Below, in pieces: positions 2,619 through 19,590 of a DNA stretch of 20,370 nt. The position numbers and the translations under genes were made by a program. Source of the stretch: Candidatus Wukongarchaeum yapensis (GTDB lineage: Archaea; Asgardarchaeota; Wukongarchaeia; Wukongarchaeales; Wukongarchaeaceae); the NCBI GenBank assembly GCA_016840425.1, contig JAEOSI010000017.1, positions 1 through 20,370 of the forward strand. The letters are read 5' to 3'. How positions within the stretch are numbered: position 1 is the first letter of the stretch; each line of letters starts with the position of its first letter. The notes under the pieces were generated by a model. The model was given only the letters and a program-made list of their open reading frames with translations, did no database searches and was not told the DNA's origin.

Positions 2619-5012
2619 CTATTCTTCTTCATCGAATAATTGCTTCACATCCGGAAACATCGCCTCTCCCGGGAACTCTTCAGCTTCTCCTTCTTCCTTT
2701 TTTTCAGGCAATTCTTCCCTTACTTCTTCTGCTACTACTACTTCTATTGGTCCTTCAACCTCTTTTTTCATGGCTTCTTCTGCAGCTTTTTGTGCTTCAA
2801 CAGCTTTCCGGAATACCTCCAACACTAGAGCCTCTGCTGTGGCGAAGACTTTCAAGTCACCTGTCCATCTTTCAAGTAGATGACCGTATTGTTCTGCGAA
2901 CTTTTCTGCGAACTTCTTTGCATGTTTGTGGATTATGTGTAGGTCTTTTTCTGCCACCAAAGCTACTACGAACCGCTCTTGATGTTCGAGGAGGATCTTT
3001 CTGTCTTCATGGTCTACTGCGCGTAATCTCTGTTCTGATTGCATTGATTCGGCTACGAATTGTGAAATGGCGGAAATCATTCCTGTGACAAGAGCCGAGT
3101 CTACAGCCAGCTTGCTGAATGTGTAGTCGAAAGCACAGAGACCTTCGTTGCTGAAAACGAATAGATTGTGGAGGCTTTTCTCCCAACCTCGCTCTTCCAT
3201 TTTATGTTTAACGAACAATCCTGTGGGAGTGGATAGTGCTACGGCGCCTAGAAGTAGTATGTAAGGCAGCCAGCTGATCTCCTCTTTCTCAAGTCGAGGG
3301 ACGATTGTTAAAGATACAAGGGGAGTGTATCCTATCTCGACGCCGTTGCTCCAGAAGACTGTTATGTTATACTGTCCTTCTGTTTCCCAATCATCTGTAA
3401 TTTTGAAGTTTGACGAATAGAAGTAGCCATCTACGGCTTCAGTTATGTTTTCTTGTAGGAGAATGGTTCCGTTTGGAGCTAAAAGGGTTATTTCGCACCA
3501 ATCGTTAGTGACTCCTTCGGTGACAGGATTTCCAGCAGCATCAGCTATGAAGACGCTAATCCTAGCAGTTGATTCTATTTCAATTTCGTTTGTTGTGTGC
3601 CATGTATCGCCGGAAAGTTTCTCCGTTGTAACAGTTCGGAGATAATTTGGCGATGAGAAAACAGCTGTGTATTCTCCAGATGCGATAGAGATTGCAGGAA
3701 CTATGATGCAGTTATACTCCTTGTTGAAGACCGTCTTCGTACCAAAATTTATGCCGAGGGCATCTAGGTCTACTTCAGCTCCAGTAGGATCATATAGGGC
3801 TTCAAAAGTCCAATCACTCTCATATGTTAGGTAATTTTCCCTTACAAAAAGCGAGCTACCCATTAGGGTGTAGGATACGTTCCAAGTGATCTTAGTGGGT
3901 GATACTGAGTACTTGGTGGTAGATTCGTAGCTATTAATGAAATCTGTATAGGTGTAAAGGTTTAAGGTAGGTACAGGCGCATCAACAGTGACAGTGATAT
4001 TGATATCGTAGTTAAGTTCAGTCCAAGCGGTGTCAAAGTATAAGGTGTACTCGCCGATGTAGCCCTGCAGGGTATCTTTACGAAAGGTTGGCGTGTAGTC
4101 ACCAGCAAGACCGACATCAATGCCTGTGGTAACTGTAAATCGAGCGTTAAGAGTTGAGGGATTGATCATTTCGTTTAAACCGATTTTCATTATTAGATCT
4201 GTATCCTCATCTTTAGAATAGGTCTCCCAAGCAAAATTGGACGCATTGAAGAAACTCGTAGTACCGTTGTTTGCTCTCCCTGAAAGGACATTATTTTCCA
4301 AAATCCAAGAGGAAGCAGGCACATAAGAAAGCCCCGCGTCAGTGAACCAAAATATTGCAAAATGATAATTACCTTCATCCAAGACTAAATTCATGTCCGT
4401 TATATTAATCCATCCGGTCCAAATGGTTCCCGATGGGATGGTGTTCCGGAGAAAGCCGATGTAAATCATGTTTTGACTTTCAAAATTCTCCTTGAAAACA
4501 AGAACAAGATAGTCAATTTGATTCCCATAGTCAACTATACTATAGTTAAACCATAATGACACATTATAAAGCACGCTCATTTTCTCAACTTCAAATTCTT
4601 GGGCAGCTCCAGAAACATAACCACTTTCGAGATCATCGATCGTATTCAAATTCCAACTAACATTATTTCCTATGTTTTGATATGTTGAAATTGCAGAACT
4701 TTCATCAATAGCCGTAGTAACCATGCGAATTTTATCAGCGTAGAGATCAAGACCCCATAACTGAAAAGTGGTTGATAAACCCCTACCATCGCCACTTTCA
4801 GTCAAAGTGTTTGTTGAGAATCCCTGCTCCTCCTCCCTCTCTGGATAGACTATGAATGACTTCTGATTCCGAGTTTCTCCGGTGATCTCGGAGCTTTGAA
4901 GCTCGCTTGGAGCATTACTCATTCCAGTCTGAGAAATTATGAAGAAGCAACTTAAAGAAATTAAGAAGATAAATGTTAAGGCAAAAAGAGTATTAGATTT
5001 ATGAAAAACCAT
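2619..5012 (-). CDS. Single-pass membrane protein: signal peptide, large extracellular domain, TM helix, cytoplasmic longin-like domain, acidic tail (797 aa)
   Basis: Hydrophobic N-terminus; about 550 aa beta-rich region with 11 N-x-S/T sequons; TM ISWLPYILLLGAVALSTPTGLFV (about 3205-3276). The following domain (about 2810-3175), LHNLFVFSNEGLCAFDYTF...DSALVTGMISAISQFVAE...LRAVDHEDRKILLE...FVVALVAE...FAEKFAEQY, matches the pattern of Asgard longin-like domains. Glu/Lys-rich tail. GGAGAG upstream of the ATG. Confidence 0.75.
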   Translation of the reverse strand: MVFHKSNTLFALTFIFLISLSCFFIISQTGMSNAPSELQSSEITGETRNQKSFIVYPEREEEQGFSTNTLTESGDGRGLSTTFQLWGLDLYADKIRMVTTAIDESSAISTYQNIGNNVSWNLNTIDDLESGYVSGAAQEFEVEKMSVLYNVSLWFNYSIVDYGNQIDYLVLVFKENFESQNMIYIGFLRNTIPSGTIWTGWINITDMNLVLDEGNYHFAIFWFTDAGLSYVPASSWILENNVLSGRANNGTTSFFNASNFAWETYSKDEDTDLIMKIGLNEMINPSTLNARFTVTTGIDVGLAGDYTPTFRKDTLQGYIGEYTLYFDTAWTELNYDINITVTVDAPVPTLNLYTYTDFINSYESTTKYSVSPTKITWNVSYTLMGSSLFVRENYLTYESDWTFEALYDPTGAEVDLDALGINFGTKTVFNKEYNCIIVPAISIASGEYTAVFSSPNYLRTVTTEKLSGDTWHTTNEIEIESTARISVFIADAAGNPVTEGVTNDWCEITLLAPNGTILLQENITEAVDGYFYSSNFKITDDWETEGQYNITVFWSNGVEIGYTPLVSLTIVPRLEKEEISWLPYILLLGAVALSTPTGLFVKHKMEERGWEKSLHNLFVFSNEGLCAFDYTFSKLAVDSALVTGMISAISQFVAESMQSEQRLRAVDHEDRKILLEHQERFVVALVAEKDLHIIHKHAKKFAEKFAEQYGHLLERWTGDLKVFATAEALVLEVFRKAVEAQKAAEEAMKKEVEGPIEVVVAEEVREELPEKKEEGEAEEFPGEAMFPDVKQLFDEEE

Positions 5013-5193
5013 TTTTCCAGACTCTCCACATATTTTTATCTATTACCGGATTCTGGAGGTGAAGACAGGCTCTTATATATTATATCTGAGAAATAGCAAT
5101 TTAATATTTCGATCATAAAATTGGAGATATTGGATGATTTTTCATTGAAAGTCTATCTCACTTAAAAAGGAGTAGAATTTATACATTCGATCT

Positions 5194-6396
5194 TTAGTTT
5201 TTCTTCAATTCACGAAGTTGTTTAATTAAAATCGGGACTATTTCAAGAATATCTCCAACAATCCCAAAATCAGCGACTTTGAATATTGGAGCATCTGGGT
5301 CCTTATTGATTGCTATGATGATGTCAGAAGAGCTCATTCCTACAAGATGTTGGATCGCTCCGGAGATTCCTAGGGCTATGTAGAGTTTTGGGCTTACGGT
5401 CTTTCCAGATTGGCCTACTTGGAAAGAATGGGGTAGCCATCCTAGATCTACTAGGGATCTCGAGCAGGACATTGTTCCATTTAGTTCTTCTGCTAATTCC
5501 TTGATTAATTCCAAGTTTTCTTTTGTTTGAATTCCTCGACCTGCGGAGATGAGGATATCAGCTTCTTCAATGGGAATAGTTTCCTCTTTTTGAGTAATGG
5601 CAGAATCAATGATCTTCGTCCGAATCCCTTTTGGATTAAGTTTAACAGGAATTTCTTTGATGGTTCCAGTTCGTTCAGGGTTAGGGGTTCCTTTGGGGAA
5701 CACATTGGGTCGGACTGTTGCTAGTTGGGGGCGTGTGTAGGGGGATAAGATGGAGGCCATAATATTTCCTCCAAAGGCAGGTCTGGTTTGAACTAGTTGT
5801 CGATCTTCGTTTATGTCCAGCCCTGTACAATCGGCAGTTAATCCCACTTTCAACCTTGCAGCAATTCTTGGTGCAAGGTCTCGTCCGGTCGGGGTGGCTC
5901 CGAATAGGATGATTGAGAATTTTTCTTGCATGATCACCCCGGCAATGATGTTGGTAAAACCTTCAGTAGAGTATTGTTCAAGAAGGGGGTGTTGGCATAA
6001 ATAGACTTTATCCGCTCCATGACTAATGAGGGTTTGAGTAAGTTGGGAGTTTTTTGCACCGAGTAAAATAGTGGATAGATCTTCTTCTAATTTGTCGGCT
6101 AGTATTCGACCTTTTTCGAGTATTTGGAGGGCTACGGGTTTAATTTGAGGTTCATTTTTTATTTCACATTCTGCAAAAATGCATACTCCTGAATATTTTG
6201 TTAATTCTTCTGGTGATAGCTGGGCGGGCCTTTCAATATTGAGGGCATGCTGGGGGCAGACGTTTACACAAGCTCCGCATAAGGTGCAATTTTCTAATAC
6301 TTTCGCTTTTTTATTTACAACAACTATGGCTGCGAAAGGACAGGTTTTCTCGCATAATTTGCAACCGTTACAAGCTTCTAGATCGATTTGAAGCAT
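5194..6396 (-). CDS. etfA: Electron transfer flavoprotein alpha subunit with N-terminal 2x[4Fe-4S] ferredoxin domain (LctC/CarE-like architecture)
   Basis: CNGCKLCEKTCP and CTLCGACVNVCP at the N-terminus; ETF-alpha motifs GRDLAPRIAARL, GLTADCT, QTRPAFGGN and QVGQSGKTVSPKLYIALGISGAIQHLVGM. AAGGAG RBS lies within the etfB 3' end. Confidence 0.95.
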   Translation of the reverse strand: MLQIDLEACNGCKLCEKTCPFAAIVVVNKKAKVLENCTLCGACVNVCPQHALNIERPAQLSPEELTKYSGVCIFAECEIKNEPQIKPVALQILEKGRILADKLEEDLSTILLGAKNSQLTQTLISHGADKVYLCQHPLLEQYSTEGFTNIIAGVIMQEKFSIILFGATPTGRDLAPRIAARLKVGLTADCTGLDINEDRQLVQTRPAFGGNIMASILSPYTRPQLATVRPNVFPKGTPNPERTGTIKEIPVKLNPKGIRTKIIDSAITQKEETIPIEEADILISAGRGIQTKENLELIKELAEELNGTMSCSRSLVDLGWLPHSFQVGQSGKTVSPKLYIALGISGAIQHLVGMSSSDIIIAINKDPDAPIFKVADFGIVGDILEIVPILIKQLRELKKN

Positions 6397-6401
6397 TTAT
6401 A

Positions 6402-7220
6402 TTACTCCTTGTCAACGAATACATTTTCTTGGAGGAATTCTATCAGTCTAGAGACGGCGGCTTCGGGATCGTCACTTTCGATTTTTTGCCCCCCAGTTCT
6501 ACTTTTAGGAGGGAAAATTTTGGCAACTTGAGTCGGAGATCCGCTCAAACCGAACCTTGAAGTATCTTTGCTCAAATCATCAGCGATCACGTTTTTAATC
6601 ACTTTTCTTCGCGCGTTAATTATTTCTTTAAAGGACGGAATTCTAAGGATGTTTGATCCACTGCTTACAGAGACGAGGGCTGGAAGTTTACATTCTACAA
6701 TCTCATAACCGTTTTCAGTCTCGCGTTCAACTTGAATTCTCCTTCTTTCCGGAATTAGATTAGTAGATGTTACGTAAGTAATTTGAGGTATTCCAAGGTG
6801 TTCGGCTAGTTCTGGGCCGACTTGTGCAGTATCGCCGTCGATGGCTTGTTTTCCTGTAAAAATTAAGGTGAAATCTTCTTCAAATTTTTGAATGGCTTCA
6901 CTTAAGGCTAGTGAGGTGGCTAATGTGTCCGCTCCGGCGAATTTTCGGTCACAAAGGAGGATCGCGCGATCAGCTCCTAGTTCTAAGCATCGTAAAAGGG
7001 CGCTCCGTGCTTGAGGAGGCCCCATTGTTAAAACTATAACTTCGACTTCCTCTCCTCCTCTTTCTTCTTGTTCTTTTTTGATTCTAATAGCTTCATCTAA
7101 TGCATATTCGCAAAATGGATTTAGTATGGACTGAACTCCTTCTCTTATGAGTGTACCTGTTTCTGGGTTTATCTTCACTTCACCAGCAGGAACTTGTTTT
7201 ATACATACGATTATCTTCAT
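6402..7220 (-). CDS. etfB: Electron transfer flavoprotein beta subunit, bifurcating-type motifs
   Basis: MKIIVCIKQVP, DRKFAGADTLATS and GKQAIDGDTAQVGP motifs. The start is either ATG 7220 or GTG 7226; both follow AAGGAG. Confidence 0.95.
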   Translation of the reverse strand: MKIIVCIKQVPAGEVKINPETGTLIREGVQSILNPFCEYALDEAIRIKKEQEERGGEEVEVIVLTMGPPQARSALLRCLELGADRAILLCDRKFAGADTLATSLALSEAIQKFEEDFTLIFTGKQAIDGDTAQVGPELAEHLGIPQITYVTSTNLIPERRRIQVERETENGYEIVECKLPALVSVSSGSNILRIPSFKEIINARRKVIKNVIADDLSKDTSRFGLSGSPTQVAKIFPPKSRTGGQKIESDDPEAAVSRLIEFLQENVFVDKE

Positions 7221-7235
7221 TGTCACTTAGGCTCC

Positions 7236-8870
7236 TTAAATATTTACCATATTACCGATCGAAAAAAGACCAGTTGGGTCGAGTGCTTGCTTGACTTCGA
7301 TTATTTGGCGTCTTTTATCTTCATCGAACATGATGTTAAAATATTCTTTTTTGATTTTTCCTATTCCGTGTTCGGCAGAAACTGTGCCTCCTAAGGAGAC
7401 CGCTTTTTTGGCAAAAACCTTGTAAAGTTCTTTTGCTTTCGCAAGTTCTTTTTCATCTTTTGGTAAAATGTTAATGTGGAGATGATTGTCCCCGATATGG
7501 CCGAAAATGACATGTTCTAGGTTTGATTCCCTAAGTTTTTCCCGATAAAACGATAAGATTCCAGCAAGATTGGTCTCAGGGATTATTGGCACAGCCATAT
7601 CGGTTCCAAGTTTATGAATAGTTGGATTTTTCTGTTTTCTTTCAGCGATAATGGCGTTTACTGTTTCGGGAAGGAGGTGTCGAAAGGCCGTTATCCTATC
7701 TATTTCTCGATCTTCATAACAAGCCCAGGTTTGGTCCATTGAACTATTATTTTTAATTGCAATTGTTTCTAATCTCTCGTAAAGTTCGGGAAGACTATCT
7801 TCATTATAACTGATCTCGAAAATTATTGCCGCGACATTTTTTGGGATTGGCGGCATATTAACTAGGGGGGGATCTGAAATCTGTTTTTTTCTTAAGAGTT
7901 TGAGAGAGTCTGGGCATAAGTATTCTAGAAATTCGGTTTTTAAACTTGAATCTTTTAGGCGGATATCATTCACAAAACTGGCTGCATCCATTTCAGTCGG
8001 GAAAAAAGTGGTAACAGCAATAACGTTTTCTGGTTTTTCTGTTATCCAAACTTCGACCTCCGTTATTACTCCTAAAATGCCTTCAGATCCGATGAATAGA
8101 TCGATGAGGTCCATGGAAGGTTCTGTGAAAAGGCCAGCTGCATTCTTAACATTAGTTCCTATTCTATAATAGGGGATAGAAAACGTTTTTGTTTCTCCTG
8201 CTGTGTTTTGGATAGTAAAAGTTCCTTCTGGTGAGGCGTGATATTTTCCTCGGGGAATGTCTAATATTTCCCCGTTTGCAAGGACTAGCCGGACCTTGCG
8301 AACCCATTTTCGAGTGGCTCCATATTTGTAGGAAAGAGAGCCTGAAGCATTAGTAGCTACGGTTCCTCCGAGATGGGCAGTCTTCTCTGTTGGATCTACG
8401 GGATACCAGTAAGTCTTTTCATCTTGGCTGAATTTATCCAGTAGTTCCTTTTGCTTTTCTTCTAATTCTGGAAACTTTTTCTGGATAACCTTTTCATTTA
8501 GTTCTTTAAGCGAAACTCCTGGTTGGCTTCTTACGTACCACTGTTTGGTTTTTTCATCGAATCCTAGTCCTAGAATGGCGTTAAGCTTTTCTAAGGAGAG
8601 GATAGCGCCTCCAAAGGGGACACATCCCCCAACAATACCAGTTCTGGCAGCTGAGATAGTGATAGGGACTCCTCTTTTCTCCATTTCTTGTACAACTGTA
8701 ACTATTTCTTCCTCATTTTTTGGAAAAAAAAGCCATTCTGCATAGCCCTTAAGTTTTGATTCATCGATTGTATATGAGGAAAACATCGATTCAATGTTCT
8801 CTTTTCCTTCGATTTTTCTTACTTTTTCAAAAGTAACTCCTGGCGAATATCCTGTTCTAATAAAATCCAT
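7236..8870 (-). CDS. FAD-linked D-lactate/glycolate (D-2-hydroxyacid) dehydrogenase, LctD/Dld/GlcD family
   Basis: FAD-binding PCMH region PVDPTEKTAHLGGTVATNASG and FIGSEGILGVITE; C-terminal FGHIGDNHLHINIL and GGTVSAEHGIGKIK substrate/metal-site motifs. ATG 8870 is 5 nt after AGGTGA (ORF-track GTG at 8879). The exact substrate cannot be determined from sequence alone. Confidence 0.85.
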   Translation of the reverse strand: MDFIRTGYSPGVTFEKVRKIEGKENIESMFSSYTIDESKLKGYAEWLFFPKNEEEIVTVVQEMEKRGVPITISAARTGIVGGCVPFGGAILSLEKLNAILGLGFDEKTKQWYVRSQPGVSLKELNEKVIQKKFPELEEKQKELLDKFSQDEKTYWYPVDPTEKTAHLGGTVATNASGSLSYKYGATRKWVRKVRLVLANGEILDIPRGKYHASPEGTFTIQNTAGETKTFSIPYYRIGTNVKNAAGLFTEPSMDLIDLFIGSEGILGVITEVEVWITEKPENVIAVTTFFPTEMDAASFVNDIRLKDSSLKTEFLEYLCPDSLKLLRKKQISDPPLVNMPPIPKNVAAIIFEISYNEDSLPELYERLETIAIKNNSSMDQTWACYEDREIDRITAFRHLLPETVNAIIAERKQKNPTIHKLGTDMAVPIIPETNLAGILSFYREKLRESNLEHVIFGHIGDNHLHINILPKDEKELAKAKELYKVFAKKAVSLGGTVSAEHGIGKIKKEYFNIMFDEDKRRQIIEVKQALDPTGLFSIGNMVNI

Positions 8871-8963
8871 TAAATTCACCTGTAATATCGATCTTGACTT
8901 TGGTGCATCAGTTTTCGTAATAGGATTGGTTTTTTAGGCGGATTATATATGTTTTTTCTTTTT

Positions 8964-10004
8964 CTAATAGTTGTTTGGTCCTATCATGGTGTTTAAGAGT
9001 TGGAAGTCTTCTTTTCTTTTTGCAAAAACGCCGACATTTCCAAGCCTTATATTTTTAAGACCTACGCGTTTTGCTAAGATAAAGGCTTCGATCATCTCAT
9101 GAATCGTTGGAGATCTTACATTACTCATCTTATATATTGGGAAAAAAGCTAATATGCAGAACGGGATCTCTGGGTCCACTTCTTTTAGAATTTCCGCTAT
9201 TTTTCTTATTTGTTCTGCGTCAACCCATCCTGGTATAAGGAGGCTTAACACTTCTAATACAAAGCCCATATCTAAAATCATTGCAGGTAGTTCTAATATT
9301 CTCTCATTTGAAGCCCCTGTTAGCTTTTTATGCACTTTTGAGTCGTATGCTTTTATGTCAAGCCAAAAAGAATCTATTTCCGCACTTTGAAACGCTTCTA
9401 AATTTTTCGGCGTCAATCCATACCCGTTTGTTTCGATAAGCATCCAAAAATCACTTAATTCTTTTTTAACGATATTCGAGACTTCACAATAATATTCTGG
9501 TCGGCATGCTAGATCTCCGCCTGTGAAGGCTGCTATATTTCTCGCAGGCCCAAAACCTTGAGGGCTTAAAACTATTCTTTCTTGCTCCAGTAAGCCAGGA
9601 CAAAAATCGGATCTTTTACCGTATATTATGCAAGATCCACATCCTCTACAGAGGTCGTGGGCGTGCCATGCTGTTGCCCGATGTCTTGGCTCTTTAAAAG
9701 TTATTTTTTCCGCGTAAGAAATTATTTCCTCAGCAATTTCTTCGGAGGTATACCATTGACCGTTTGCAATTTGGGTGAACTCCCATGAGTGACATTTTAA
9801 ACATGACCAGTTGCAACCACTTTGATAGATGGAGTAGTAGTGCTCAGGGCGGGATAAATGAGCGGATTTTATGAGACGTTCAAGGCCTTTTCCTGTTTTT
9901 CTAAGTGTTATTTCGCACGCGCTCCCGCTCCTAGTAGCAGCTATTGTTTTGCATGCTCCTCTTTTAAAACCTTGAAGCTCTAGGTTGCATTTTGAGTTAA
10001 CCAT
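8964..10004 (-). CDS. Radical SAM protein, PflA/glycyl-radical-activating-enzyme-like fold
   Basis: GCNWSCLKCH (CxxxCxxC), AFTGGD, IETNG, LDIKA and GNVGVF motifs. The start is uncertain: ATG 10004 follows a purine-rich GAAGG; the ORF track starts at 10106. Confidence 0.85.
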   Translation of the reverse strand: MVNSKCNLELQGFKRGACKTIAATRSGSACEITLRKTGKGLERLIKSAHLSRPEHYYSIYQSGCNWSCLKCHSWEFTQIANGQWYTSEEIAEEIISYAEKITFKEPRHRATAWHAHDLCRGCGSCIIYGKRSDFCPGLLEQERIVLSPQGFGPARNIAAFTGGDLACRPEYYCEVSNIVKKELSDFWMLIETNGYGLTPKNLEAFQSAEIDSFWLDIKAYDSKVHKKLTGASNERILELPAMILDMGFVLEVLSLLIPGWVDAEQIRKIAEILKEVDPEIPFCILAFFPIYKMSNVRSPTIHEMIEAFILAKRVGLKNIRLGNVGVFAKRKEDFQLLNTMIGPNNY

Positions 10005-10124
10005 AAGCCTTCTCTTCTCATAACCTTCTTTAACATTACTATGATAACAGATAGAAAACAAAATAATAAAACTAGGATTAGACAGACAAGAACCGCTTTT
10101 ATTCAATCATTTTATTTGCTTTCT

Positions 10125-10641: not shown

Positions 10642-12060
10642 TTGGTGAGATTGTCTCCGTTAACGGTTCATGGTTTGTTGCCGGGTATTAACTGTAAGAA
10701 GTGCGGGGAGGTGACTTGTCTTGCTTTTGCTTCTAAGCTTGTTGCGAGAACGGCTGAAGTTGAGGCTTGTACTCCTCTTTTTGAGGAGGAGCAGTATGCT
10801 GAGAAGAGGCAAAAGCTGATTGAGTTGATTACGCCTCCGGTTGTTTCTGTGAAGATTGGTGGAGGTGAAAGGACCGTTGTTGTAGGCGGTGAGGAGGTTT
10901 TATATAGGCATGATTTGACGTTTTATCATCCTTGTGCTTTGGCTATTGATATTAGTGATGAGATGGATGAAGAGACGGTAAAGAAGAGGGCTGAGTGGGC
11001 TGATAGGTTAAAGATTGAGCGTATAGGCAAGGTTTTAACTTTAAACCTTATAGCGGTTAGGGATGTTTCGGATGATCCTGAAAAGTTTGCCAAGGTTGTT
11101 TCATGGGTTCGGGAATCTGCTGGTTTACCGTTGATTTTGTGTTCTTATAATCCTGAGGCGATTAAGGCGGCTTTGGATGTATGCGAGATGGATAGACCGT
11201 TAGTGTATGCTGCGACTGAGAATAACTGGCAAGAGATCGCTCCTCTTGTCAAAAAGTATAACGTTCCTGTTTGTGTTTCAGCTCCAGATAATTTAACATT
11301 GCTAAAACAGTTAGCTGTAACGCTTCAAGCCTATGGAATAAAGGATATAGTTCTTGATCCTGGCACTTTTATTGATAACGGTGGCTTGAATAGGACTCTT
11401 CAGAACTTTGCGCTTTTAAGGCGTGCTGGAATAGAACAGGAAGAGGAAGGGGTAGGGTTCCCGTTGTTGGGCATACCTGCCATAGCATGGGCTAATGGGG
11501 AAGATTCTGTGACGAACGCTTATACGGAGGCTATAGTTGCATCGATGCTTATAGCAAAGTATGCGGATATTTTGATTCTTCACAGCGAGGATGTATGGTC
11601 GCTTCTCCCCGTGTTCACGCTTAGGCAAAACATCTACTCTGATCCAAGAATACATCCCGCGATAGATCCGGGCATTAGGGAGATTGGTAACCCGACTCCA
11701 GAGTCACCAGTATTTGTGACTGCGAATTTTGCCCTTACATATCACACTATAGAGTCAGATCTTGAAGATGGGAAGATAGATTCTTGGATTCTTGTTGTGG
11801 ATACTGAAGGCATTGGTATAGAATCAGCGGTAGCAGGAAGGCAATTTTCCGCAGTTAAAATAAAAGAGGCTATTGATGAGTTTGATTTAGAATCTAAGGT
11901 AAGTCATAGGGTTATGATGTTGTCTGGCCTTGCGTCAAGGATAAGCGGTGAAACTGAAGAGGAAACAGGATGGAAAGTGATCGTTGGTCCGAAAGACTCA
12001 GGGGGCCTCAAGGCAATGAACTTAAAGGAGCTTTGGGAGAAAAAAGCACAAGAAGAATAA
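10642..12060 (+). CDS. cdhE: Corrinoid iron-sulfur protein large subunit (CODH/ACS gamma subunit)
   Basis: N-terminal LLPGINCKKCGEVTCLAFA...C Fe-S domain; GGEEVLYRHDLTF; TIM-barrel region with DIVLDPGT; C-terminal corrinoid domain PVFVTANFALTY...LVVDTEGIGIESAVAGRQF...VGPKDS. AAGGAGG 10 nt before the TTG start. Confidence 0.95.
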   Translation: MVRLSPLTVHGLLPGINCKKCGEVTCLAFASKLVARTAEVEACTPLFEEEQYAEKRQKLIELITPPVVSVKIGGGERTVVVGGEEVLYRHDLTFYHPCALAIDISDEMDEETVKKRAEWADRLKIERIGKVLTLNLIAVRDVSDDPEKFAKVVSWVRESAGLPLILCSYNPEAIKAALDVCEMDRPLVYAATENNWQEIAPLVKKYNVPVCVSAPDNLTLLKQLAVTLQAYGIKDIVLDPGTFIDNGGLNRTLQNFALLRRAGIEQEEEGVGFPLLGIPAIAWANGEDSVTNAYTEAIVASMLIAKYADILILHSEDVWSLLPVFTLRQNIYSDPRIHPAIDPGIREIGNPTPESPVFVTANFALTYHTIESDLEDGKIDSWILVVDTEGIGIESAVAGRQFSAVKIKEAIDEFDLESKVSHRVMMLSGLASRISGETEEETGWKVIVGPKDSGGLKAMNLKELWEKKAQEE

Positions 12061-13507: not shown

Positions 13508-14803
13508 TTATATCTTTTGGAGAAGGTTTTGGAGGATTTCTTTATCGGGTAAGCAGTTTTCACTCGGAGAATCGAGGAACTTTCTCAATTTTTTTGTTTG
13601 CATGTCCATTCTTATCATCGTGCCTTCTGTCTCTACCCCGGTTATAGTAGCGGGAATAGCTACTGAAGCCTTTTTAACGGTTAAATTCATCTGGGTATCT
13701 ATTACGATTAAAGGAATATTTTGTAATTTTTCCACTAATTTTTGGGGAAAACTGGCGAAAGGATTCGCGCCAATGATCAACGCTGCATCGCAATCCCCGT
13801 TGATTAAGGCTTCTGTCACCGTTGTCTTCTCCGGAGGATTTTTTGAAAAATCTATACCGTAACCATAGGGCACTCCAGCCATCTTTTTTGCTGCTAGGTT
13901 AAATCCTAGCATGTTACTGTGTCCTATCATGGGCATTAGTGAAAATTGCCCCTTGAGATTTGGGTGTTTTACGAGTTTTATTAAACCTTCAATGTTTTCC
14001 TTGAAATTTTCTTGCTGGAGGATTCCAAGGCCGAAAAAGATTGTGCCAAACTGTGCTTTTTTCATCATTTTACCAAAATCGATGATGTCTTTTTTCATGA
14101 TCCCTCCTACATTTTCAGGCAATTCTTTGCCGGATAGATATTCAATTAAAGCTTTTATTAGGTTTAAGTCCTTTTCTGGCTCTATTTGTAAGAATAGGTT
14201 TATTCCTTTGGCGGATCTTGTTTTTATGACGTCAACAACGACGACTTCCCTTTCCAATCTTCCTGTGATTCTGACTTTTCCCCGGGGAAAAACGGTGTAT
14301 CGGCTTAGGTGTCTGCTGTGAGAATCGGCAGGGTTAGACCCCCAATAGACCACAAGATCTGCCATATCCCCTACTTCTTCTAAAGTGGGACATTTGAACT
14401 CCTCCCTGGAAATCTCTTCTATCAATCTTAAAGAAATTCCATGACAAATGCTTGAAGTGGAATCTATGACACCTTCAAGCTTTTCAGCAAGTTGTATCCC
14501 TACTTCTTGGGCTTCATAACTAACGCTGCCCCAACCGTATAACAACGGCTTTTTTGCTCGTGAAAGAAGATTACAAGCCACATCTAATGCCTCGCTTAAA
14601 TGAGCGGGCTTTAACCTTCCTTCCTCCAAGATAAGGGGGTTAGTTAATCGATTGGGAGAGTTAACAAGTTTTAAAAAAGCATCCCCCCGCATGCATGCGT
14701 TATAAGTGGAAACAATTTTTCCATCATTAATAACGCAAAAAACATCATCACAAAGCAAAGAGCAATGAGGACAAACAATCCTTTCTACCTGTCCCAAAGC
14801 CAA
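13508..14803 (-). CDS. fwdB: Formylmethanofuran dehydrogenase subunit B-like Mo/W-bis-pterin protein
   Basis: CPHCSLLCDD...ACMRG [4Fe-4S] motif; PLLYGWGS; DSTSSICHG (metal-ligand Cys, TGT at 14444-14446); VVYWGSNPADSHSRHLSRY; GVETEGTMIRMD. GGTGA upstream of the TTG start. Confidence 0.92.
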   Translation of the reverse strand: MALGQVERIVCPHCSLLCDDVFCVINDGKIVSTYNACMRGDAFLKLVNSPNRLTNPLILEEGRLKPAHLSEALDVACNLLSRAKKPLLYGWGSVSYEAQEVGIQLAEKLEGVIDSTSSICHGISLRLIEEISREEFKCPTLEEVGDMADLVVYWGSNPADSHSRHLSRYTVFPRGKVRITGRLEREVVVVDVIKTRSAKGINLFLQIEPEKDLNLIKALIEYLSGKELPENVGGIMKKDIIDFGKMMKKAQFGTIFFGLGILQQENFKENIEGLIKLVKHPNLKGQFSLMPMIGHSNMLGFNLAAKKMAGVPYGYGIDFSKNPPEKTTVTEALINGDCDAALIIGANPFASFPQKLVEKLQNIPLIVIDTQMNLTVKKASVAIPATITGVETEGTMIRMDMQTKKLRKFLDSPSENCLPDKEILQNLLQKI

Positions 14804-15085: not shown

Positions 15086-15586
15086 CTATATTAGAATTTT
15101 TATTGCTTCTGTGAAACAGTATATTTCGCACACGCGGCATTGGGCATAGGAAAGTTTTTCCGTGTCGGCGTACCTGCGGCATTTTGTGAGGTCGATTATT
15201 TTTGCTTTTCCATCCTTTACAACATAGATAACGTTTTCCTCTTTTTCTGGGGCTACCCCTATGCCTGCGGATGATTCTGGGTTTTCTGCAACGTTTACTG
15301 GGCAAACAATCAGGCAGTTACCGCATCCGATGCATTTTTCTTCTTCAAGAATTATTCCTGTTTCTAAGGCCTCGCTTAGAGGGGTTAGGAGTTCTTGGAG
15401 CTTTTTTAACTGTTTTTCGTAGGCTTTTTCTTCAAAGAGAGGCGTGCATTTTTCGAGTTCGATTTGGCGTCCTAGGAGTTTAACTGCAAAGGCCATACAT
15501 CCTGATTCGCCGCATTTTTTACAATTAGTTTTAGGAAGGAGTTGGAACACTTCGAAAGCATTCAATTTTGTCAAAAATGGCACCAC
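15086..15586 (-). CDS. fwdG: FwdG-like ferredoxin with N-terminal CdhE/RnfB-type Fe-S domain
   Basis: LLPKTNCKKCGESGCMAFA...CTPL domain followed by CIGCGNCLIVCPVN (typical of FwdG) and a second cluster motif C-x13-CRVCEIYC. The start may be TTG 15574, which follows GTGGTG. Confidence 0.75.
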   Translation of the reverse strand: MVPFLTKLNAFEVFQLLPKTNCKKCGESGCMAFAVKLLGRQIELEKCTPLFEEKAYEKQLKKLQELLTPLSEALETGIILEEEKCIGCGNCLIVCPVNVAENPESSAGIGVAPEKEENVIYVVKDGKAKIIDLTKCRRYADTEKLSYAQCRVCEIYCFTEAIKILI

Positions 15587-15870: not shown

Positions 15871-18249
15871 GTGAAAGTCGGAGTTTTTGTTTGTCATTGT
15901 GGGTTTAACATTGCGAGCACGGTTGATATAAACGAAGTTGTTTCAGAGTTAAAGAAGGATCCTGAGCTTTTATGTTTTGATCATGATTATGTTTGCTCAG
16001 CTGGTGGTTTAGGGTTGATCAAGGAAAAGATTTTGGAGGAAACGCTTGAAAGGGTTGTTGTTGCGAGTTGCACTCCAAAACTTCATGAATTCCTTTTTAG
16101 ACAAACTTTAGAGAAGGCTGGTTTAAATCCTTATTTTCTTGAGGTTGCCAATATAAGGGAGCAGTGTAGTTGGGTTCATTTTGATGACCCTAAGAGGGCT
16201 ACAAGAAAGGCTATAGTTCTTATAAAAATGGCTGTGGAGAAGGTTAAGCTTCAGTCGTCTTTAAGTGTTAGAAAGGTTCCTGTTGAGCAAAGTGTTTTAG
16301 TGGTTGGTGGGGGTGTTGCAGGGATAACTGCAGCTTTAAATGTGGCTGATGCCGGGCTTAAGGTTTATTTGGTTGAAAGAGAGCCCAGTATTGGGGGTCA
16401 TATGGCTCAATTTGATAAAACGTTTCCTACGATGGATTGTTCGATATGTATCCTTGCCCCTTTAATGGTTAGGGTTTATGAACACCAAAACATCACTTTG
16501 TTGACTAATTCCGAAGTTTTGCAAGTGAATGGGTCTGTTGGTAAGTTTGAAGTAGAGGTTTTGAAGTATCCTCGTTATGTTGATGAAGAAAAATGTAGTC
16601 AATGCTATCAGATATGTACTGATCCTTGTCCTATAGAGGTTCCTAATGAGTTTGATTTGAATATGTCAAAAAGGAAGGCGATATATGTTCCGTTCCCTCA
16701 AGCGGTACCTTTGGTTCCTTTGATAGATGAGGAGAACTGTGTAGGTTGTAGGGCTTGTGAGCTTGTTTGCGACCTTGATGCGATAGACTTTGATCAAAAA
16801 CCAGAAAAACTGGCGTTGAAAGTCGGTGCAATAATAGTGGCTACGGGGTATGAGACTTATGATGCTAGCAAGAAAACTGAATATGGATATGGTAAGTATC
16901 AGAATGTTATCACGTCCATTGAACTTGAACGTATGCTCACGCCTTTTGGTCCTACAGAAGGTAATGTGATTCGCCCTACTGATGGAGAATATCCGAAAAA
17001 CGTTGTTTTTGTCCAATGTGTCGGTAGTCGTGATGAAGAAACTCCTTATTGTTCTAGGGTTTGTTGTTCTTACGCTATAAAACAGGCTCAAGAGATCAAG
17101 GAGAGGATTCCTGGAGTTGAAGTTTACATATTCTACCAAGATATTCGTACTTTTGGCAAGGGGCAGGAGGAAGCGTTTAGAAAAGCGCTTGATGAGTATC
17201 GTATAAGGTTTATTCGAGGAAGGGTTAGTAAAATAATCGAGGATAATAAGAGTAAAAGTTTGTATGTTCTTGCTGAAGATACGTTGGTTGGGCGTCCTGT
17301 GGAGGTTTTTGCGGGCTTAGTTGTTTTATCTGTGGGGCTTCAACCGCCAAAGGGTACTGATAAAATTGCTTCTCTATTAAAGGTGAGTAGAAGCGTAGAA
17401 GGTTTTTTGTTAGAGGCCCATCCTAAGTTAAAACCTGTTGAAACCCACAAAGCGGGGATATTCTTAGCTGGGTGTATTCACGGTCCAAAAGATATCCAAG
17501 ATACTGTTTCCCATGCGGGGGCTGCGGCCTCTAAGGCTATAAGTTTACTTATAGGAGGAGAGATCACCGTTGAAAAAATTACCCCTGTGATCAGTTTAGA
17601 AGACTGTATTAAGTGTGGTTTATGCGAAAAGGCTTGTGATTTTGGGGCTATTATTGTGACGAAAGGGGGAGCTCAGGTTAATGAAGCTGCTTGTTTTGGG
17701 TGTGGCGCTTGTGCTGCGACCTGCCCAACTTCCGCCATAGATATGCCCATTTCAAAAGACGCTCAAGTGTTGGCACAAATCGATGCCGCTATTAAAGAGA
17801 AGTGGGAGTTTCCGTTGATAATCGGTTTTTTATGTAATTGGTGTGGTTATAATGCTGCAGATATAGCAGGGGTAGGTAAACAAAAGTATCAGCCTAACAT
17901 GTTACCGATTAGACTTTCATGTTCTGCTAGTGTTGACCCTTCTTATGTTTTTCACGCCCTTTTTAAAGGGGCTGACGGTGTATTAATCGCTGGATGTTAT
18001 CCGCAAGACTGCTATTATAGTACGGGTTTCAAGAAGGCAAAACAAAGGGTTTCAATCATAAAATCAACGTTAAACGAGTTAGGTATTAGCAAGGAGAGGG
18101 TTCACATTATTAGTTCGAGCGCTTCGGAAGGAAAGAAATTTGCGAAGGAGGTTGATGAGTTTATAAAAAAGATAGAAAAGCTTGGCATAATGGGGACAGA
18201 ACTAGAGAGTGAAATTATGAGCATAAAAGTTTCTAAAGAGGAGGAATGA
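15871..18249 (+). CDS. hdrA: Heterodisulfide reductase subunit A fused to C-terminal MvhD/HdrF [2Fe-2S] domain
   Basis: VGVFVCHCG, ANIREQCSWVH, VGGGVAG (FAD), DKTFPTMDCSICILAP, ITSIELERM, QCVGSRD, YCSRVCCSYAIKQA and GPKDIQDTV motifs; inserted and C-terminal 2x[4Fe-4S] domains. MvhD-like IIGFLCNWCGYNAADIAG...GADGVLIAGC...DC from about 17812. Confidence 0.95.
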   Translation: MKVGVFVCHCGFNIASTVDINEVVSELKKDPELLCFDHDYVCSAGGLGLIKEKILEETLERVVVASCTPKLHEFLFRQTLEKAGLNPYFLEVANIREQCSWVHFDDPKRATRKAIVLIKMAVEKVKLQSSLSVRKVPVEQSVLVVGGGVAGITAALNVADAGLKVYLVEREPSIGGHMAQFDKTFPTMDCSICILAPLMVRVYEHQNITLLTNSEVLQVNGSVGKFEVEVLKYPRYVDEEKCSQCYQICTDPCPIEVPNEFDLNMSKRKAIYVPFPQAVPLVPLIDEENCVGCRACELVCDLDAIDFDQKPEKLALKVGAIIVATGYETYDASKKTEYGYGKYQNVITSIELERMLTPFGPTEGNVIRPTDGEYPKNVVFVQCVGSRDEETPYCSRVCCSYAIKQAQEIKERIPGVEVYIFYQDIRTFGKGQEEAFRKALDEYRIRFIRGRVSKIIEDNKSKSLYVLAEDTLVGRPVEVFAGLVVLSVGLQPPKGTDKIASLLKVSRSVEGFLLEAHPKLKPVETHKAGIFLAGCIHGPKDIQDTVSHAGAAASKAISLLIGGEITVEKITPVISLEDCIKCGLCEKACDFGAIIVTKGGAQVNEAACFGCGACAATCPTSAIDMPISKDAQVLAQIDAAIKEKWEFPLIIGFLCNWCGYNAADIAGVGKQKYQPNMLPIRLSCSASVDPSYVFHALFKGADGVLIAGCYPQDCYYSTGFKKAKQRVSIIKSTLNELGISKERVHIISSSASEGKKFAKEVDEFIKKIEKLGIMGTELESEIMSIKVSKEEE

Positions 18250-18255
18250 AATGCT

Positions 18256-19590
18256 TTGACAGTGTTTGAGCAAGTTACTCGAAATTTTGACGTTATTGAT
18301 ACAAACTTTTTGCTTACGTGGAAGGTCAGAAAAAAGGATAAAAGCCTCCTTTATTTTAGTGAAAAATGTGTAGGTTGCCAGCTTTGCCAAGAGATTTGCC
18401 CTGTTTCAGCCATAGAATATGGACCGATACCGCAAATCGCTACGGGGGAAATAGAAGCCCCTTATATATTGATCGATTTAGACAAGTGTATTTTTTGTGG
18501 TTTGTGTGCGGTTGTTTGCCCGACTCATGCCCTATTATTTGCTTTTAATAAGAAACAGATCGATTTATTAAACGATTATCCAAAGATTTCAGGCCGGATA
18601 GAGATCAGTGATGAATGTATCCCTTGTAAATTATGCGACCTTGTTTGTCCAACCAAGGCGTTTAAATTAGAGTTGGAGGTTGAAAAAAAGGAAAATCTTG
18701 TAACGTATGAGGAAGAGATACCGCCTGAAAAGGTAGAGGGAGCTATAATCATAGATAAAGAAAAGTGTACTTATTGTGGTCTTTGTGAGGAACTTTGTGA
18801 AGCGATTAAGATTACGTGGGTTGAGCCTTCAGGGGAGTTTCTCAGGCCTGGTATTGATATTATTGTAGATGAGGATAGGTGTGATTACTGTAATTTATGT
18901 GCAGAGTTATGTCCATCCGAAGCCGTAAAAGTCGAATGTAAAACCCCTCTTGAGAGGACAGTTAGAGAACCGAATATTAGGGGTTCGCTTGTTTTGAATG
19001 AGGATAAATGCATTTACTGTGGTTGGTGTGCTTTTGTGTGCCCTGTAGAAGCCGTTAAGTATGAGAAGCCTTTTGAAGGAGAGGTAACGGTTTCAAATCT
19101 TGAAAAATGTGACCCTGTTGGGTGCAATGCTTGTATAAAGATCTGTCCTACAAACGCTTGGTATATCCCGAAACGTTCCTTGGAAGATGAAGTAACAGAA
19201 AAAATCGCGGTGAACAAGGATCTTTGCGTTTTTTGTGGTGCCTGTCAAAATTCTTGTCCTGAAAACTTGATAACGGTCACAAGAAAAGAGATACATGTAG
19301 AAGAAGAAATTCCACATAGACCTTGGACAACATCATGGAAAAGAGATTTAAACAGATTGATAAATGTTCCTTTGCCCGTCAAAAACTTTAGAGAGATAAG
19401 CTTAAAGCCGGTAGAGCCTGTTGAAGAACTGCCAAGCCCCATAACTCCTATACAGAAAATTTCAGAAAATATGCAAAATCTTCTCGAAGAAAAGGCAAAA
19501 ATCATAGAAGAACGCTTAGAAACTCCAAAATTTAGGAGGCTTCTTGAGGGGTTTACCAGTCGTAAACCAAATTCCTCCTCTAAACCCTAA
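18256..19590 (+). CDS. fwdF: Polyferredoxin with eight [4Fe-4S] motifs, FwdF-like
   Basis: Eight Cys motifs counted: CVGCQLCQEICP, CIFCGLCAVVCP, CIPCKLCDLVCP, CTYCGLCEELCE, CDYCNLCAELCP, CIYCGWCAFVCP, CDPVGCNACIKICP and CVFCGACQNSCP. FwdF-like linkers (GPIPQIATG, KPFEGEV). Starts 6 nt after the hdrA stop. Confidence 0.88.
   Translation: MTVFEQVTRNFDVIDTNFLLTWKVRKKDKSLLYFSEKCVGCQLCQEICPVSAIEYGPIPQIATGEIEAPYILIDLDKCIFCGLCAVVCPTHALLFAFNKKQIDLLNDYPKISGRIEISDECIPCKLCDLVCPTKAFKLELEVEKKENLVTYEEEIPPEKVEGAIIIDKEKCTYCGLCEELCEAIKITWVEPSGEFLRPGIDIIVDEDRCDYCNLCAELCPSEAVKVECKTPLERTVREPNIRGSLVLNEDKCIYCGWCAFVCPVEAVKYEKPFEGEVTVSNLEKCDPVGCNACIKICPTNAWYIPKRSLEDEVTEKIAVNKDLCVFCGACQNSCPENLITVTRKEIHVEEEIPHRPWTTSWKRDLNRLINVPLPVKNFREISLKPVEPVEELPSPITPIQKISENMQNLLEEKAKIIEERLETPKFRRLLEGFTSRKPNSSSKP

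Follow-up and report, generated by a model that had tools for sequence, protein, structure and literature searches.

A putative confurcating D-2-hydroxyacid dehydrogenase–Etf system encoded by the Asgard archaeon Candidatus Wukongarchaeum yapensis

Which reaction is catalyzed by the products of three adjacent genes, dehydrogenase-etfB-etfA, that lie on the minus strand at positions 5194-8870 of a 20,370-nucleotide (nt) stretch of DNA from Candidatus Wukongarchaeum yapensis (contig JAEOSI010000017.1)? This whole stretch, which contains 22 open reading frames (ORFs) of at least 80 amino acids (aa), is referred to here as the window. A previous sequence-only reading had described the genes as an operon resembling LctBCD, the lactate dehydrogenase–electron-transfer flavoprotein (Etf) complex of Acetobacterium woodii, and had proposed that the host, a probable Asgard archaeon, oxidizes or produces lactate or oxidizes glycolate. 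We consider it likely that the three genes encode one soluble (dehydrogenase-EtfAB)n complex that works like Ldh-EtfAB of A. woodii. The system is probably a confurcating D-2-hydroxyacid:NAD+/ferredoxin oxidoreductase (NAD, nicotinamide adenine dinucleotide), for which lactate is one candidate substrate only. Models of Asgard metabolism, and hence of syntrophy at the origin of eukaryotes, depend on NADH/ferredoxin balancing, and a dedicated confurcating or bifurcating hydroxyacid/oxoacid couple constitutes an NADH/ferredoxin valve. A 2018 survey of bifurcating enzymes reported Bf-Ldh in Bacteria only (PMC6085437), and a full-text literature search combining Asgard or other archaea with Etf and lactate yielded no account of the module. 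What is added here is a residue-level comparison of the substrate pocket with D-2-hydroxyglutarate dehydrogenase (D2HGDH), the phylum-wide distribution of the module, and a genome-wide census of possible partners.

The Etf subunits

The small subunit EtfB (6402-7220, minus strand; 272 aa, Pfam ETF) scored 177-197 bits against five solved bifurcating EtfB proteins (CarD, LctB, and those of C. difficile, A. fermentans and T. maritima), whereas canonical ETF-beta from human, Paracoccus and Methylophilus gave 82-102 bits and 5ow0_B gave 30 bits. A similar separation was observed for the large subunit EtfA (5194-6396, minus strand; 400 aa, Pfam Fer4, ETF and ETF_alpha), which scored 253-389 bits against bifurcating proteins and 138-170 bits against canonical ETF-alpha. 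Its best solved match was CarE (6fah_A, 389 bits over the full length), and C. difficile EtfA and LctC gave 295 and 285 bits, respectively. That both subunits are closer to bifurcating than to canonical proteins is based on these scores against solved structures.

The functional residues can be compared with those of LctBCD, in which mutagenesis has been reported (PMC9232219). Confurcation by that enzyme is lost on changing EtfB residues 122-DGDTAQVGP-130 (the site of the second flavin adenine dinucleotide, FAD), 87-RxFxG-91 (NAD) or 223-SPT-225 (the arm anchor), and also on changing EtfA R205, which contacts N5 of the EtfB FAD, or the Cys41/44/47 cluster of the ferredoxin domain (PMC9232219). 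Every element of Acetobacterium LctBC thus shown to be essential is present in the EtfAB encoded in the window. In EtfB (P0002 numbering), DGDTAQVGP is found at positions 130-138, aligned to A. fermentans 122-130, RKFAG (RxFxG) at 94-98, GADT at 98-101, and SPT at 230-232; the DGDTAQVGP stretch includes the small Gly (A. fermentans G123) conserved in all bifurcating ETFs. In EtfA, R205 (within QTRPAFGGN) and D189 align with the identically numbered residues of LctC.

In the N-terminal ferredoxin-like domain of EtfA (residues 1-65; 6202-6396, minus strand), the motif CxxCxxCxxxC occurs in full twice, first at residues 9-19 and again at 37-47. The cysteines of the second copy (C37/C40/C43/C47) align with C41/C44/C47 of LctC, which hold the FAD-proximal [4Fe-4S] cluster, and the first motif (C9/C12/C15/C19) corresponds to an extra distal cluster, as in CarE. 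The Etf can therefore be assigned to the two-FAD, bifurcating type with high confidence for a sequence-based call. The two [4Fe-4S] motifs and the Fe-S adaptor domain of EtfA, the GADT and DGDTAQVG motifs of EtfB, and the bifurcating character of the Etf had all been claimed in the sequence-only reading, and all of these claims held.

The presence of a lactate dehydrogenase gene beside Etf genes is no proof of bifurcation, since such an enzyme may be non-bifurcating, as in Fusobacterium nucleatum (PMC12630350). An analogous system here would be a plain relay from the dehydrogenase through Etf to another acceptor, with no ferredoxin/NAD coupling. Such a relay would be consistent with some close homologues of the dehydrogenase that have no adjacent Etf, from which it follows that the dehydrogenase can probably use other acceptors. 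We nonetheless regard it as very unlikely, given that EtfB has the full FAD, NAD and anchor motifs together with the invariant Gly of bifurcating ETFs, at whose position the canonical ETF of F. nucleatum has Phe (PMC12630350), that EtfA carries a ferredoxin adaptor domain, and that no FixCX-like genes lie beside the operon. The host genome (2.16 Mb in 277 contigs, 92% completeness, to which all genome-wide absences given here are subject) was also searched for an alternative Etf partner, and no acyl-CoA dehydrogenase that could act as acceptor was found. With a single Etf pair, a single FAD-oxidase_C gene and no acyl-CoA dehydrogenase, the dehydrogenase is the only recognizable partner of the Etf. 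The genome also encodes a full-length eukaryote-type actin (PF00022, 444.6 bits) and two further actin-family genes, which confirms the earlier suggestion that the host is an Asgard archaeon.

The dehydrogenase and its substrate

The first gene of the set encodes a FAD-dependent D-2-hydroxyacid dehydrogenase resembling LctD and LDHD (7236-8870, minus strand; 544 aa, Pfam FAD_binding_4 and FAD-oxidase_C). Its best match in the PDB was LctD (7qh2_C), with 121 bits for the single sequence and, when family profiles were used, 174 and 206 bits. The corresponding values were 112, 138 and 177 bits for mouse LDHD and 80, 116 and 137 bits for human D2HGDH (6lpn). An AlphaFold2 model built from 56 family members had a predicted local distance difference test score of 89.5 and a predicted template modelling (TM) score of 0.89. 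The top Foldseek matches of this model were mouse LDHD, LctD (TM score 0.85 on the target, root-mean-square deviation 3.8), an isopod-gut D-LDH and D2HGDH, with identities of 20-24%.

Profile alignment was used to locate the counterparts of the functional residues of LctD; dehydrogenase residues are given in P0001 numbering, which begins at GTG 8879, three residues before ATG 8870. The catalytic base H423 of LctD corresponds to H504, the metal ligands H377/H384/E422 to H461/H468/E503, the carboxylate-binding R328 to R400, and the inter-flavin glutamates E37/E139 to E40/E165. All of the catalytic, metal-binding and carboxylate-binding residues are invariant in the 56 family members, and the two glutamates are invariant or nearly so. 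The retention of these residues indicates that the chemistry of metal-assisted D-2-hydroxy acid oxidation and the Etf-facing surface are conserved.

These features suggest a mechanism for the complex. In the dehydrogenase, the metal site formed by H461, H468 and E503 would bind a D-2-hydroxy acid, whose carboxylate would rest on R400; H504 would take the hydroxyl proton, and a hydride would be transferred to the dehydrogenase FAD. Single electrons would then move to the FAD carried by the mobile domain of EtfA and from there to the second FAD in EtfB, which would receive its other electron from reduced ferredoxin via the two [4Fe-4S] clusters of the N-terminal domain of EtfA. NAD+, bound at the RxFxG site, would finally be reduced by a hydride from the fully reduced EtfB FAD. 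Overall, the predicted reaction is hydroxyacid + Fd(red) + 2 NAD+ -> oxoacid + Fd(ox) + 2 NADH, where Fd is ferredoxin. It would be reversible, such that NADH could reduce ferredoxin with the 2-oxoacid as high-potential acceptor. The host genome offers a metabolic setting for such a reaction, as it encodes three to four 2-oxoacid:ferredoxin oxidoreductases along with a racemase of the LarA type. The latter is the sole member of the LarA family (nickel-pincer hydroxyacid racemases; Lar_N 220.6 bits plus LarA_C) and is located on another contig (C54 27508-28095; L095 4328-5620, minus strand); it could supply the D-isomer to the dehydrogenase. The LarA gene lies at a contig end, adjoining an AsnC-type regulator and a MoeA-PBP fusion.

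The operon was described as LctBCD-like by the sequence-only reading, but membership of the dehydrogenase in the LctD lineage was not supported. It shares about 24% identity with LctD and equally with mouse LDHD, and it appears to belong to its own uncharacterized family of about 545 aa that forms a clade separate from LctD. Family members are publicly annotated as 'FAD-binding oxidoreductase' or 'D-lactate dehydrogenase (cytochrome)', and an ESM Atlas search with the dehydrogenase returned generic FAD-oxidase clusters only.

The substrate pocket provides further information. In mouse LDHD, specificity is set by the hydrophobic subsite B (V101/W351/S365/I407; PMC10589216), for which the LctD counterpart is L80/L332/E344/Y386 (PMC9232219). 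In human D2HGDH, T390, K401, Y432 and N443 bind the distal carboxylate, and yeast DLD2 and DLD3, which prefer D-2-hydroxyglutarate, have Pro at the position of T390 (PMC7801405). The dehydrogenase encoded in the window has I82, P404, G425 and N470 in subsite B, and F459 at the position of Y432. Compared with LctD, the change of L80 to I82 is conservative, but those of L332 to P404, Y386 to N470 and E344 to G425 are not, so the LctD-type hydrophobic pocket is not found. P404, four residues after the carboxylate-binding Arg, is invariant in the family, and N470, two residues after a metal-binding His, is nearly so. K423 is also invariant and precedes G425 by two residues; the model places both in one short extended stretch. 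Two of the four D2HGDH determinants match (the Asn, and the Pro as in DLD2/3), the Lys is displaced two residues upstream, and the Tyr is replaced by Phe; the position equivalent to K401 (G425) was placed by spacing relative to mouse LDHD, as a 100-aa sub-query gave no match to 6lpn. The pocket thus appears polar, unlike that of LctD or LDHD, and partly D2HGDH-like, which is a lead and not a demonstration.

These residues bear on whether the genes encode a true LctBCD orthologue, an electron-confurcating D-lactate dehydrogenase for growth on lactate or its disposal. LctD is the top solved relative by sequence, the subsite A and inter-flavin residues are identical to those of LctD, JGI labels family members D-lactate dehydrogenase, and the host has a LarA-family racemase elsewhere in its genome (compare lctF in A. 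woodii). In addition, the trio in Desulfobacteraceae follows peptidoglycan-recycling genes, a possible source of D-lactate. On the other hand, P404 replaces L332/W351 of LctD/LDHD, N470 replaces Y386/I407, G425 replaces E344/S365, and K423 is invariant. Moreover, the LctP lactate permease (PF02652) was not found in the host genome, a comparison of 83 loci revealed no conserved permease, racemase or regulator next to the trio, and the dehydrogenase is no closer to LctD than to mouse LDHD in identity. True orthology with LctBCD is therefore doubtful in our view, and we judge D-lactate to be an uncertain, rather unlikely substrate. The proposal of lactate or glycolate as substrate in the sequence-only reading is weakened by the same pocket substitutions and by the missing permease.

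From the pocket, a larger, more polar or anionic side chain, such as that of D-2-hydroxyglutarate or D-malate, is a tentative suggestion for the substrate, and some other D-2-hydroxy acid is possible. An Etf-coupled dehydrogenase dedicated to dicarboxylic or otherwise polar D-2-hydroxy acids of the D-2-hydroxyglutarate or D-malate type would account for the conserved P404 and N470 and for the invariant K423 near the K401-equivalent G425, and the mostly housekeeping nature of the neighbouring genes would fit an endogenous metabolite. Yet the Lys does not align with K401 and the Phe lacks the hydroxyl of the Tyr, the family is closer overall to LctD/LDHD than to D2HGDH (206 bits for 7qh2 and 137 bits for 6lpn), and neither a SerA-type or HgdH-type enzyme nor a 2-hydroxyglutaryl-CoA dehydratase was found in the host genome. 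On the balance of these points, we hold this assignment to be possible but on the unlikely side.

Besides the F. nucleatum precedent and the homologues with no adjacent Etf, several observations weigh against the proposed confurcating D-2-hydroxyacid oxidoreductase. The family has no biochemically characterized member, and the dehydrogenase is as distant from LctD as from LDHD. It has two insertions relative to LctD, at about 134-157 (with a helix at 144-152) and about 210-256 (with a beta-hairpin at 220-234), both modelled at high confidence by AlphaFold2. In the host genome, no clear NAD-dependent D-2-hydroxyacid dehydrogenase (2-Hacid_dh) and no 2-hydroxyacyl-CoA dehydratase was found, in addition to the missing LctP permease.

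With these points included, the confurcating D-2-hydroxyacid:NAD+/ferredoxin oxidoreductase remains the probable function. The system would work like LctBCD, yet we do not class the dehydrogenase as LctD, from which it differs in pocket residues and operon context. A 'lactate dehydrogenase' label may therefore mislead metabolic reconstructions, given an uncharacterized clade and a pocket unlike that of LctD. We also entertain, with low confidence, the idea that the Etf-linked family of about 545 aa is a further class of bifurcating Etf complex beside Bcd, Car, Ldh and Fix, with a non-lactate substrate for which a dicarboxylic D-2-hydroxy acid (D-2-hydroxyglutarate or D-malate) is the candidate. 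If so, the class would have a wide distribution among Thor-, Heimdall- and Hod-type Asgard archaea as well as anaerobic bacteria, and strict anaerobes could use it to oxidize that acid with NAD+ while consuming reduced ferredoxin. A dicarboxylic acid would represent a new substrate class for bifurcating Etf complexes.

Distribution, gene neighbourhoods and operon layout

Relatives of the dehydrogenase are encoded in more than 592 species representatives, and the family is present in many anaerobic bacteria as well as in Asgard archaea. Within the species and genus, identities are 89-100%, but the closest proteins outside are only 47-52% identical and come from Promethearchaeota, Hod-, Heimdall-, Hermod-, Thor- and Lokiarchaeota metagenome-assembled genomes (MAGs) and from Desulfobacterota. 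At a threshold of E <= 1e-90, the family was detected in 121 of 301 sampled Asgard genomes. It is nearly universal in three Asgard families (29/29, 69/76 and 17/19 genomes) and nearly absent from another large one (f9, 2/68), a sharp metabolic split within the phylum; the module therefore separates Asgard lineages metabolically. The host's own family was represented in the search by just one other genome (same genus, 88% identity), and the gene was not found in the one searched genome that shares only the order of the host.

For analysis of gene neighbourhoods, 83 loci were clustered (the window and 82 homologous loci). EtfB and EtfA adjoin the dehydrogenase in 33 of them and are the only neighbours that recur beyond individual lineages, and because the trio recurs as a unit in these loci the arrangement is not due to chance. 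Other recurrent neighbours are lineage-specific and mostly housekeeping genes, such as those for SRP54, UvrB and chorismate synthase. When 81 dehydrogenase homologues were arranged in a maximum-likelihood tree, the protein encoded in the window stood alone on a long branch within a clade of 38 entries (97% support), 28 of which are Etf-linked. Etf linkage is clustered on this tree, requiring 11 changes as opposed to 26.7 with shuffled labels. The core D-G-[DE]-T-x-Q is kept in all 27 full-length linked EtfB proteins that were aligned, and DGDTAQV in 24 of these.

Some lineages showed features of their own. In two Desulfobacteraceae loci (L006 3595-9635 and L016 2051-7635), the trio begins 4 nt after a gene of the Asp/Glu racemase family, with genes for an LD-carboxypeptidase, a beta-lactamase-fold protein and an Mpl-like Mur ligase further upstream, a peptidoglycan-recycling context that could be a source of D-lactate or of D-glutamate-derived acids. 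In Heimdall-type genomes the dehydrogenase is present as two paralogues, of which one precedes etfBA (L022, L026, L028, L032 and L051) and the other (L017, L023 and L024) has no Etf genes in the flanks that were read, which covered 2.5-6 kb and were at some loci too short to tell. In the Asgard family f4, matches were found in all 29 sampled genomes, with two in most. Dehydrogenase-Etf genes on contigs binned as Faecalibacterium, Bacteroidaceae and Bifidobacteriaceae (L057, L064 and L068) are nested in a Methanomassiliicoccales clade (L055, L062 and L072) with branch lengths of 0.1-0.2; these are probably archaeal contigs mis-binned in gut MAGs. EtfA in the Methanomassiliicoccales clade is without the ferredoxin domain.

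In the window, the LctBCD-like architecture and the short gaps noted by the sequence-only reading were borne out by the three Pfam-assigned genes. The dehydrogenase ORF as called spans 7236-8879 with a GTG start, but the true start is likely ATG 8870, as the resulting 544 aa match the length of 100%-identical proteins on record. Similarly, the EtfB ORF was called at 6402-7226, and its true start is likely ATG 7220 (272 aa), the same call as in a 96%-identical relative. With these starts, 15 nt separate the dehydrogenase stop codon from the etfB ATG (TAA-GGAG-N11-ATG) and 5 nt separate the etfB stop codon from the etfA ATG (AAGGAG-TAA-N5-ATG), with the ribosome-binding sites GGAG and AAGGAG overlapping the end of the preceding gene. 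The 93-nt space 5' of the dehydrogenase (8871-8963, minus strand), for which a promoter function is predicted from the sequence, contains a purine-rich run and, after it, a TATA-like box rich in A/T, ATATATAA, at 8943-8950, and a GGTGA ribosome-binding site is present at 8876-8880. Downstream, a T5 run about 26 nt past the etfA stop codon (5164-5168, minus strand) may be an archaeal terminator, and a TATA-like box for the next gene lies beyond it at about 5072-5085. With a promoter-like element upstream and the T5 run and second TATA-like box downstream, the trio looks like a self-contained transcription unit.

Directly upstream of the dehydrogenase is a gene for a radical S-adenosylmethionine (SAM) protein (8964-10106, minus strand; 380 aa, possibly 346 aa), for which the best match was a YjjW-type glycyl-radical-enzyme activase model (75.8 bits, well below the cut-off); no glycyl-radical enzyme was found in the window. 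This gene was rejected as an operon member, as it is conserved only in the same-genus relative and not at other Asgard loci and is set apart by the 93-nt promoter-like space. Downstream lie two adjacent 797-aa ORFs (219-2612 and 2619-5012, minus strand). They were considered as module members or glycyl-radical enzymes and rejected, having no Pfam match and their own TATA-like box and not being paralogues of each other (BLASTP E 0.47); they are also unrelated to a 950-aa neighbour in a Hodarchaeota locus. Four further redox genes are present in the window, for a CdhD/corrinoid Fe-S protein (10642-12060, plus strand; 433 bits), a molybdopterin oxidoreductase (13508-14803, minus strand), a small Fe-S protein with a CdhE-like N-terminus (15086-15586, minus strand), and an HdrA2-MvhD fusion (15871-19590, plus strand; 1059.6 bits, cut-off 1100), which is followed after 6 nt by a FwdF-like polyferredoxin. 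The HdrA2-MvhD fusion is a second flavin-bifurcation module, 7 kb from the Etf operon; this clustering was not seen at other Asgard loci.

Comparison with known systems

Ldh-EtfAB (LctBCD) of A. woodii (PDB 7QH2; Weghoff 2015; Kayastha 2022, PMC9232219) has the same three-subunit design encoded by adjacent genes. Both systems combine a VAO/PCMH-type FAD dehydrogenase that has a His base, a His/His/Glu metal site, a carboxylate-binding Arg and two inter-flavin Glu residues with an EtfB containing DGDTAQVGP, RxFxG and SPT and an EtfA containing R205 and a ferredoxin adaptor domain. They differ in gene order (D-B-C in the window, B-C-D in LctBCD), in the number of EtfA clusters (two and one, respectively) and in the host, which is archaeal here and bacterial for LctBCD. 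The dehydrogenase encoded in the window is about 77 aa longer than LctD, has two structured insertions and appears to fall in a separate clade, and its trio has no neighbours like lctA, lctE and lctF, the permease, racemase and regulator operon context of LctBCD. The two-cluster ferredoxin domain of EtfA is instead like that of CarE in CarCDE, the caffeyl-CoA reductase-Etf complex of A. woodii (PDB 6FAH), in which the partner is an acyl-CoA dehydrogenase-type reductase and not a FAD-linked hydroxyacid dehydrogenase.

Among single dehydrogenases, the top Foldseek match, mouse LDHD, is a general D-2-hydroxyacid dehydrogenase (PDB 8JDC series; PMC10589216). Its subsite A residues R347, H398, H405, E442 and H443 equal R400, H461, H468, E503 and H504 of the protein encoded in the window, whereas subsite B differs (V101, W351, S365 and I407 versus I82, P404, G425 and N470, plus K423). 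Mouse LDHD also has no dedicated bifurcating Etf operon, unlike the dehydrogenase studied here. Human D2HGDH (PDB 6LPN; PMC7801405) shares the Asn two residues past the second metal His, and yeast DLD2/3 share the Pro four residues after the Arg. Like the human enzyme, the window protein has a conserved Lys lining this region of the pocket, but at a position two residues away from that of the human Lys, and Tyr432 of the human enzyme is Phe in the window protein. Finally, the Ldh-ETF-Bcd system of F. nucleatum (PMC12630350) resembles the window in having a D-lactate dehydrogenase beside Etf, but its Etf is canonical, with AMP (adenosine monophosphate) and the Phe, and feeds Bcd, whereas the Etf encoded in the window has all bifurcating-type features.

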